The translations under genes and the position numbers were made by a program. From Escherichia coli (GTDB taxonomy: Bacteria; Pseudomonadota; Gammaproteobacteria; Enterobacterales; Enterobacteriaceae), in NCBI RefSeq assembly GCF_050920415.1, contig NZ_CP169309.1: a stretch of 64,000 nt of DNA; one strand, written 5' to 3'. Under the pieces are notes generated by a model that saw only the letters and a list, made by a program, of their open reading frames with translations, was not told the origin of the DNA and did not search any database. The first letter of the stretch is position 1. Each line of letters starts with the position of its first letter. Below are positions 18,068 to 18,093 of the stretch, in pieces.

Positions 18068-18093
18068 ATGCCGGATAATTGTTTATCCGGCAT
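18068..18093. terminator. perfect 11-bp-stem palindrome between convergent yhfA and prkB (REP-half-like)
   Basis: atgccggataa-ttgt-ttatccggcat. Confidence 0.4.

Follow-up and report, generated by a model that had tools for sequence, protein, structure and literature searches.

A stem-loop without a U-tract as a likely shared 3'-end element of the convergent yhfA and prkB genes of Escherichia

We consider it likely that a perfect palindrome in the gap between the convergent genes yhfA and prkB is a 3'-end stem-loop that the two genes share and that lacks a U-tract, that the mRNA ends found beside it arise by Rho termination followed by exonucleolytic trimming, and that it descends from a REP element. 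The palindrome was analysed within a 64-kb stretch of DNA filed under E. coli (hereafter the window, to whose positions all coordinates refer unless K-12 is named; Table 1). In the route that we propose, one stem-loop in the 3' untranslated ends of both transcripts, that of yhfA on the (+) strand and that of prkB on the (-) strand, would set and stabilise the mature 3' ends of both mRNAs. RNA polymerase would mostly pass the hairpin and transcribe the opposite gene in antisense, where the RNA is untranslated, rich in C and poor in G, and where Rho would terminate the transcript. PNPase and RNase II would then trim the RNA back until halted by the stem-loop, so that the RNA would end a few nucleotides beyond it. 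Hence, the hairpin would probably act chiefly as a barrier to 3'-5' exonucleases after downstream Rho termination; it may also terminate weakly in both directions, and both routes may operate together.

Table 1. Coordinates of the yhfA/prkB hairpin, its surroundings and similar hairpins of K-12 (window positions unless K-12 is given)
Feature	Position	Strand	Remarks
Palindrome	18068-18093	both	11-bp stem and 4-nt loop; formable in yhfA-sense (+) and prkB-sense (-) transcripts
Left half of conserved core, GCCGGATA	18070-18077		identical to an E. coli REP outer arm (PMC2817692)
Right half of conserved core, TATCCGGC	18084-18091		invariant in the Escherichia alleles compared
Loop, TTGT	18079-18082		Escherichia variants: TATT, TGCT, ATATTC (6-nt loop)
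yhfA (OsmC-family protein)	17645-18049	+	ORF; mRNA ends at the hairpin (K-12 data)
prkB (phosphoribulokinase), convergent partner	18104-18973	-	ORF
Expected yhfA mRNA 3' end	18096-18098	+	projected from K-12 3485367/3485365(-); inferred for the window strain
Expected weaker prkB-sense 3' end	18063	-	projected from K-12 3485400(+); inferred for the window strain
C-rich, G-poor 100 nt, candidate Rho-loading region	18094-18193	+	yhfA sense, antisense to prkB 3' end; composition only
C-rich, G-poor 100 nt, candidate Rho-loading region	17968-18067	-	prkB sense, antisense to yhfA 3' end; composition only
Head-less hairpin, hpt/can	K-12 141977-141999		Term-seq ends on both strands (Adams)
Head-less hairpin, mrcB	K-12 167280-167306		
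Head-less hairpin, erpA/yadS, atgtgccggataAACtatccggcacat	K-12 176965-176991		Term-seq end at erpA (Adams)

The palindrome reads ATGCCGGATAATTGTTTATCCGGCAT, that is ATGCCGGATAA-TTGT-TTATCCGGCAT, and its arms (18068-18078 and 18083-18093) are perfectly complementary over 11 bp, five of which are G-C pairs, giving a stable, GC-containing stem-loop. It lies centrally in the 54-nt gap between the stop codons of yhfA and prkB, and the identities of both genes agree with the RefSeq annotation of a 100%-identical genome (NZ_CP169399.1). RNA folding of the gap yielded the hairpin on both strands (-17.6 kcal/mol on the (+) strand and -16.0 kcal/mol on the (-) strand), with a z-score of about -4 and none of 200 dinucleotide shuffles equally stable. 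A first-pass annotation of this DNA had described a perfect 11-bp-stem palindrome between convergent yhfA and prkB; the sequence, the ORFs and the fold all bear this out. Its further remark, that neither side has a strong U-tract, also held: the 8 nt that follow the stem contain two T on each strand (tails ATTAGCAG and CGTACTCC), a U-rich tract of 7-8 nt is absent on both strands, and no A-tract lies upstream of the hairpin on either flank. A consensus terminator and promoter scan neither called the site nor found a promoter nearby. Because no U-tract follows the stem on either strand, the hairpin is at best a weak intrinsic terminator. We rejected a canonical intrinsic terminator, of which the stem-loop is present, the U-tract is missing and the scan was silent. 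Rfam searches detected no family matching the hairpin at gathering thresholds across the whole window, and only chance-level matches at the hairpin site with permissive E-values across 17950-18250.

Perfect hairpins with stems of at least 11 bp are greatly over-represented in the 64-kb window, with seven observed versus 0.07 expected from shuffles. One of the seven lies inside the yheT ORF and five others have flanking A/T runs, leaving the yhfA/prkB hairpin as the sole intergenic one without an A/T tract. A second perfect palindrome, TGAATTCAGCA-CTGC-TGCTGAATTCA at 20207-20232, has an 11-bp stem (12 bp in K-12, locus 1231-1258) and no T-tract; it falls inside yheT, near the 5' end of that ORF and just past the end of yheS, and encodes ...EFSSSAEF.... 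This palindrome could form an internal structure where yheS and yheT meet.

The window shares 96.1% identity with K-12 over 8 kb, versus 91.7% with E. albertii. A 1-kb query (17600-18600) was matched at 99% identity or more by one of 5,425 genomes labelled E. coli, and the exact window-allele 38-mer around the hairpin was found in 18 genomes. Judged by these sequence comparisons, the window probably belongs to an Escherichia lineage, divergent or cryptic, that is filed under E. coli.

We compared five Escherichia alleles of the gap, namely those of the window, K-12, KCTC 2571, E. albertii and SCPM-O-B-8794 (labelled E. coli). All 16 columns of the hairpin core are invariant, versus eight of the 38 other gap columns, the remaining 30 being variable (Fisher p = 3.5e-8). 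Next to the core, the window has a T-A pair, E. albertii and SCPM-O-B-8794 have A-T, and K-12 has a mismatch, which amounts to one compensatory change; a test of covariation within Escherichia was not significant and gave shuffle-like values, with nine of 12 pairs never varying and one compensatory. The K-12 version of the 38-mer was present at 99% identity or more in 5,298 of 5,426 E. coli genomes and at 95-99% in 108 more, with a median of one and a maximum of two copies per genome, and at one place in each.

For a wider view we used 80 loci fetched via PrkB. The convergent arrangement of prkB and yhfA is maintained throughout the Enterobacterales, and z is below -2 for the folds of 44 of the 55 gaps measuring 20-400 nt, whose sequences are unrelated between genera. 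Since it is a strong hairpin, and not its sequence, that is conserved at the site, we favour a role at the level of RNA that is useful but dispensable. A few genera have a near-zero gap between yhfA and prkB (2-11 nt) or overlapping stop codons, and E. coli 21AH057 (NZ_AP043965.1; locus 1546-2239) has lost the hairpin, about 635 bp being deleted and the remains of yhfA and prkB forming a fusion of two truncated pseudogenes; hence, the hairpin region is dispensable. The spacing between prkB and yhfA reaches about 3.5 kb in Serratia and Rahnella and 0.9-1.4 kb in Aeromonas and Zobellella, where an insertion of some kind separates the convergent genes.

The orthologous gap of K-12 MG1655 is also 54 nt long and carries GCCGGATA-GTATTT-TATCCGGC at 3485372-3485393. 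This hairpin has the same 8-bp core followed by a closing G-U pair and then a mismatch at the next outer position, such that the K-12 stem (8 bp and one G-U pair) is shorter than that of the window, in a region that has diverged by about 4%. Published Term-seq data (Adams et al. 2021, eLife, PMC7815308, Supp. file 1) place a 3' end classed as 'primary' for yhfA at 3485367(-), 5 nt beyond the K-12 core stem, with a mean of 61,539 reads in LB at OD 0.4 and the sequence ...GAAGCCGGATAGTATTTTATCCGGCGTAAT; no prkB-strand 3' end is reported at the gap in that dataset. A second study, TRS (Nat Commun 2023, PMC10687069, Supp. Data 2/3), lists dominant 3' termini at 3485365/3485366(-), designated yhfA Primary, from RNAtag-seq and term-seq datasets. 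The same study (Supp. Data 2) lists a weaker prkB-sense terminus at 3485394-3485402(+), dominant at 3485400, which is 7 nt beyond the core stem. This prkB-sense terminus has replicate p-values of 0.015, 0.0029 and 0.00085 in one RNAtag-seq dataset only, and we assigned it to the sheet 'E. coli - Barsheshet' by its position in the file, not by a row-adjacent header. An abundant internal 3' end within the yhfA ORF was also recorded by Adams et al. at K-12 3485512(-), corresponding to about 17951(+) in the window and lying about 98 nt before the stop codon (39,228 reads; Rho score 0.50, 'No').

All of the K-12 ends mapped at the hairpin fall 5-7 nt past the orthologous core stem; thus, the mapping of 3' ends, which had been put forward as a check on the palindrome, came out positive for yhfA by both Term-seq and TRS and tentatively positive for prkB by TRS. 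The K-12 orthologue therefore has a precise steady-state end just 3' of a stem-loop that lacks a U-tract, and ends are listed for both strands of this one hairpin, strong for yhfA (two studies) and weak for prkB (one dataset). All the transcript data come from K-12, a lineage other than that of the window. We transferred the coordinates through the co-linear 54-nt gap, and if the window strain behaves like K-12, the yhfA end would fall 3-5 nt past its 11-bp stem. The SMRT-Cappable-seq supplements have no entry for yhfA or prkB. We found no paper naming prkB together with yhfA, and the sole paper found on yhfA and Rho treats only the promoter divergent from crp.

On both sides of the hairpin the downstream sequence has the composition of a candidate Rho-loading region. 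The ratio of C to G in the first 100 nt downstream is 1.94 in the yhfA sense and 1.87 in the prkB sense, at about the 98th percentile of the 100-nt windows of the whole stretch, and part of this excess is explained by the antisense strand of any coding region being expected to be somewhat C-rich. Dar & Sorek 2018 (NAR, PMC6061677) described that the steady-state ends of Rho-dependent transcripts lie directly after stable stem-loops that lack a U-tract, that C is enriched over G downstream of those ends, and that the ends are produced by PNPase/RNase II trimming to the stem-loop. The yhfA/prkB hairpin resembles these elements in its stable stem-loop, the precise end, the low U content and the excess of C over G downstream, and it folds with an energy typical of terminator hairpins. 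It differs from them in serving two convergent genes, and Rho termination and trimming are here a proposed route.

A region sensitive to bicyclomycin is listed at 3484750(-), with a Rho score of 6.2, by Adams et al. 2021 (PMC7815308, Supp. file 2). It is antisense to prkB, and on the yhfA strand about 620 nt separate it from the hairpin upstream; that list has no entry at the hairpin itself, this being the nearest. Its position is compatible with Rho stopping yhfA read-through inside antisense prkB, and a separate antisense transcript could also be its source.

A flanking A-tract and a U-tract together make the hairpin of a bidirectional terminator function in either direction, and the window holds examples at 25572, 33343 and 48754, all with A- and U-tracts. 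Bidirectional intrinsic terminators between convergent genes are said to be the subject of work by Ju et al. in Nat Microbiol in 2019. The yhfA/prkB hairpin is like them in that one symmetric hairpin stands halfway between convergent stop codons and K-12 ends are reported on both strands, but it lacks their A- and U-tracts. An alternative to be weighed is that it is a non-canonical bidirectional intrinsic terminator, which would release polymerase in both directions, possibly aided by converging polymerases colliding head-on, the mapped ends then being the points of termination. We regard this as unlikely. The distance of 5-7 nt between the core stem and the K-12 ends would suit termination points, one dataset has ends on both strands, and the geometry is that of a bidirectional terminator, as at hpt/can, where a hairpin likewise has ends on both strands; moreover, Dar & Sorek (PMC6061677) allow that such sites are possibly inefficient intrinsic terminators with Rho as a backup. 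However, with just two U in the 8 nt that follow the stem in either transcript, and without an A-tract upstream, the hairpin stands apart from the other five intergenic perfect hairpins of the window (stems of at least 11 bp), which all have T/A tracts, and the signal that is sensitive to bicyclomycin lies further downstream on the yhfA strand. We therefore retain Rho termination and trimming to the stem-loop as the likely main route.

REP elements are defined by a GT(A/G)G head joined to a GC-rich imperfect palindrome and by high copy number (Nunvar et al. 2010, PMC2817692), and they are described as stabilisers of mRNA 3' ends (Stern 1984 and Newbury 1987, as cited in PMC6061677). The arms of the hairpin, GCCGGATAA and TTATCCGGC(A), had been noted to resemble REP half-sites and proved to be identical to the outer arms of the Y-type REP of E. 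coli (PMC2817692, Table 1). The hairpin also shares with REPs an extragenic position at the 3' ends of transcription units, here between convergent stop codons. In contrast, no GT(A/G)G head abuts the stem, the window flanks being ...GGAGTACGAT before GCCGG on the (+) strand and ...CTGCTAATAT before GCCGG on the (-) strand; the K-12 flanks, GTTGTGAA and CTATTAC, likewise present no GTAG or GTGG abutting the stem. The REP consensus (GCCGGATAAGGCG...CGCCGCATCCGGC) is an imperfect palindrome of about 30-35 nt, of which just the outer 9 and 8 nt match. The hairpin has instead the centre AATTGTT, a total of 26 nt, perfect symmetry and no inner GCG...CGC section. REPs number more than 100 per genome, whereas each genome has the 38-mer around the hairpin at a single place, and the exact and near-exact search of 5,426 E. 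coli genomes thereby excludes a dispersed repeat as such. We conclude that the hairpin is not a REP, because it has neither the head nor the inner section, is a perfect palindrome of 26 nt and is single-copy.

The NC_000913.3 record has no REP feature at the hairpin. It lists IS elements and ncRNAs and no REPs, even at lspA/fkpB (25710-25795) and tilS/rof (213668); since such obvious REPs are also unlisted, the missing annotation is uninformative. The only other REP-like element in the 64-kb window is a degenerate one, GACGCATCAGGC ... TCGGATGCGGCGTGAACGCTGTATCCGA, in the argD/yhfK gap (14510-14556).

True REPs occupy the orthologous gap in related genera. In Pseudescherichia vulneris the yhfA/prkB gap contains GCCCGGTGGCGCTGCGCTTACCGGGCCTAC, which matches a published Citrobacter/Klebsiella REP, head included, with one central base differing. 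The gap of Superficieibacter has three REP copies, that of two Enterobacter species is also REP/BIME-bearing, and other genera have head-less, more symmetric versions of REPs. Both the REPs or BIMEs and the head-less versions align arm-to-arm with the Escherichia hairpin. Given true REPs and BIMEs in the orthologous gap, together with head-less hairpins with the same arms at the ends of K-12 genes, an origin of the yhfA/prkB hairpin from a REP is plausible: a REP-type palindrome would have landed in the gap, and its GTAG head and GC-rich inner section would later have been lost. Two Pseudocitrobacter loci have in this gap a long, near-perfect hairpin built on CCCTCTCCC...GGGAGAGGG, a motif that occurs twice between hrpB and mrcB in K-12 (39547-39631 of the segment), which suggests a different dispersed family of palindromic repeats that uses the same kind of site.

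To survey similar hairpins we took 150 kb of K-12, which contained 103 short perfect hairpins. The commonest 6-mers in their stems were TGCCGG, GCCGGA and CCGGAT. The same 150 kb has nine true REPs and, at the 3' ends of genes, three head-less hairpins with GCCGGAT/ATCCGGC arms, at hpt/can, mrcB and erpA/yadS (Table 1). These are like the yhfA/prkB hairpin in their arm words, stems of 9-12 bp, loops of 3-5 nt and lack of a REP head; they are independent loci with other flanks and loops, and they form no family formally defined in the literature found. In a loose sense the motif thus has further copies, and with Term-seq ends at hpt/can (both strands) and erpA these behave alike. We suggest, with considerable reserve, that head-less GCCGGAT/ATCCGGC hairpins may be an unrecognised class of domesticated REP remnants, kept as compact 3'-end stabilisers or terminators that serve both strands. 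Such remnants would have lost the head that the transposase recognises and the inner stem, and then come under selection for symmetry, especially between convergent genes. If so, the yhfA/prkB gap, with bona fide REPs in some genera and head-less perfect hairpins in others, would be an example of REP domestication.

The first-pass annotation had proposed a REP-derived stabiliser or a bidirectional terminator, to be checked by a search for other copies. The outcome of that search was favourable: the whole element is single-copy, hairpins with the same GCCGGAT/ATCCGGC arms recur at hpt/can, erpA/yadS and mrcB, and related genera have true REPs in the orthologous gap. The K-12 ends, the recurrence of the arms and the REPs in the gap essentially support the proposal, with the qualifications that the hairpin is not a REP by its defining features and, for want of a U-tract, not a canonical intrinsic terminator.

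It is very improbable that the palindrome functions instead as DNA, whether as a REP/PU bound by the REP-associated tyrosine transposase (RAYT), gyrase or IHF, or as the operator of a dimeric protein. A perfect 26-bp palindrome with 9-nt arms equal to the outer arms of REPs would suit such a role, as would a core whose sequence itself, beyond its pairing, is invariant in Escherichia. However, the element lacks the GT(A/G)G head as well as the GC-rich inner section, it spans 26 nt versus about 30-35 nt for a REP, and each genome has one copy. It is also located between two stop codons with no promoter found nearby, and unrelated hairpins replace it at the same site in other genera, which indicates that structure, and not a binding sequence, has been kept. 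For the same reasons of location and replacement, we consider a transcription-factor operator unlikely. Slightly less credible still is a chance or neutral palindrome, such as a decaying repeat relic with incidental 3' ends nearby: covariation within Escherichia is indeed not significant, and a few genera and one E. coli deletion strain do without the hairpin, but this reading must contend with the 0.07 such hairpins expected per window, the invariance of the core relative to the flanking gap columns, the strong hairpins retained in most of the orthologous gaps and the abundant 3' ends at the hairpin in independent studies.

The yhfA/prkB hairpin is thus an unannotated yet ordinary instance of the known 3' stem-loops of E. 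coli mRNAs that lack a U-tract. It adds a 3'-end element that is missing from genome records for yhfA and, probably, for prkB, and it is a further case of E. coli genes that finish at a stable stem-loop even though they have no canonical terminator. All that is mildly new is that one orthologous site shows a series from REP to trimmed hairpin: with some genera holding true REPs and others hairpins that are trimmed and head-less, the yhfA/prkB gap supports the notion that REP insertions can be a source of 3' stabilisers.
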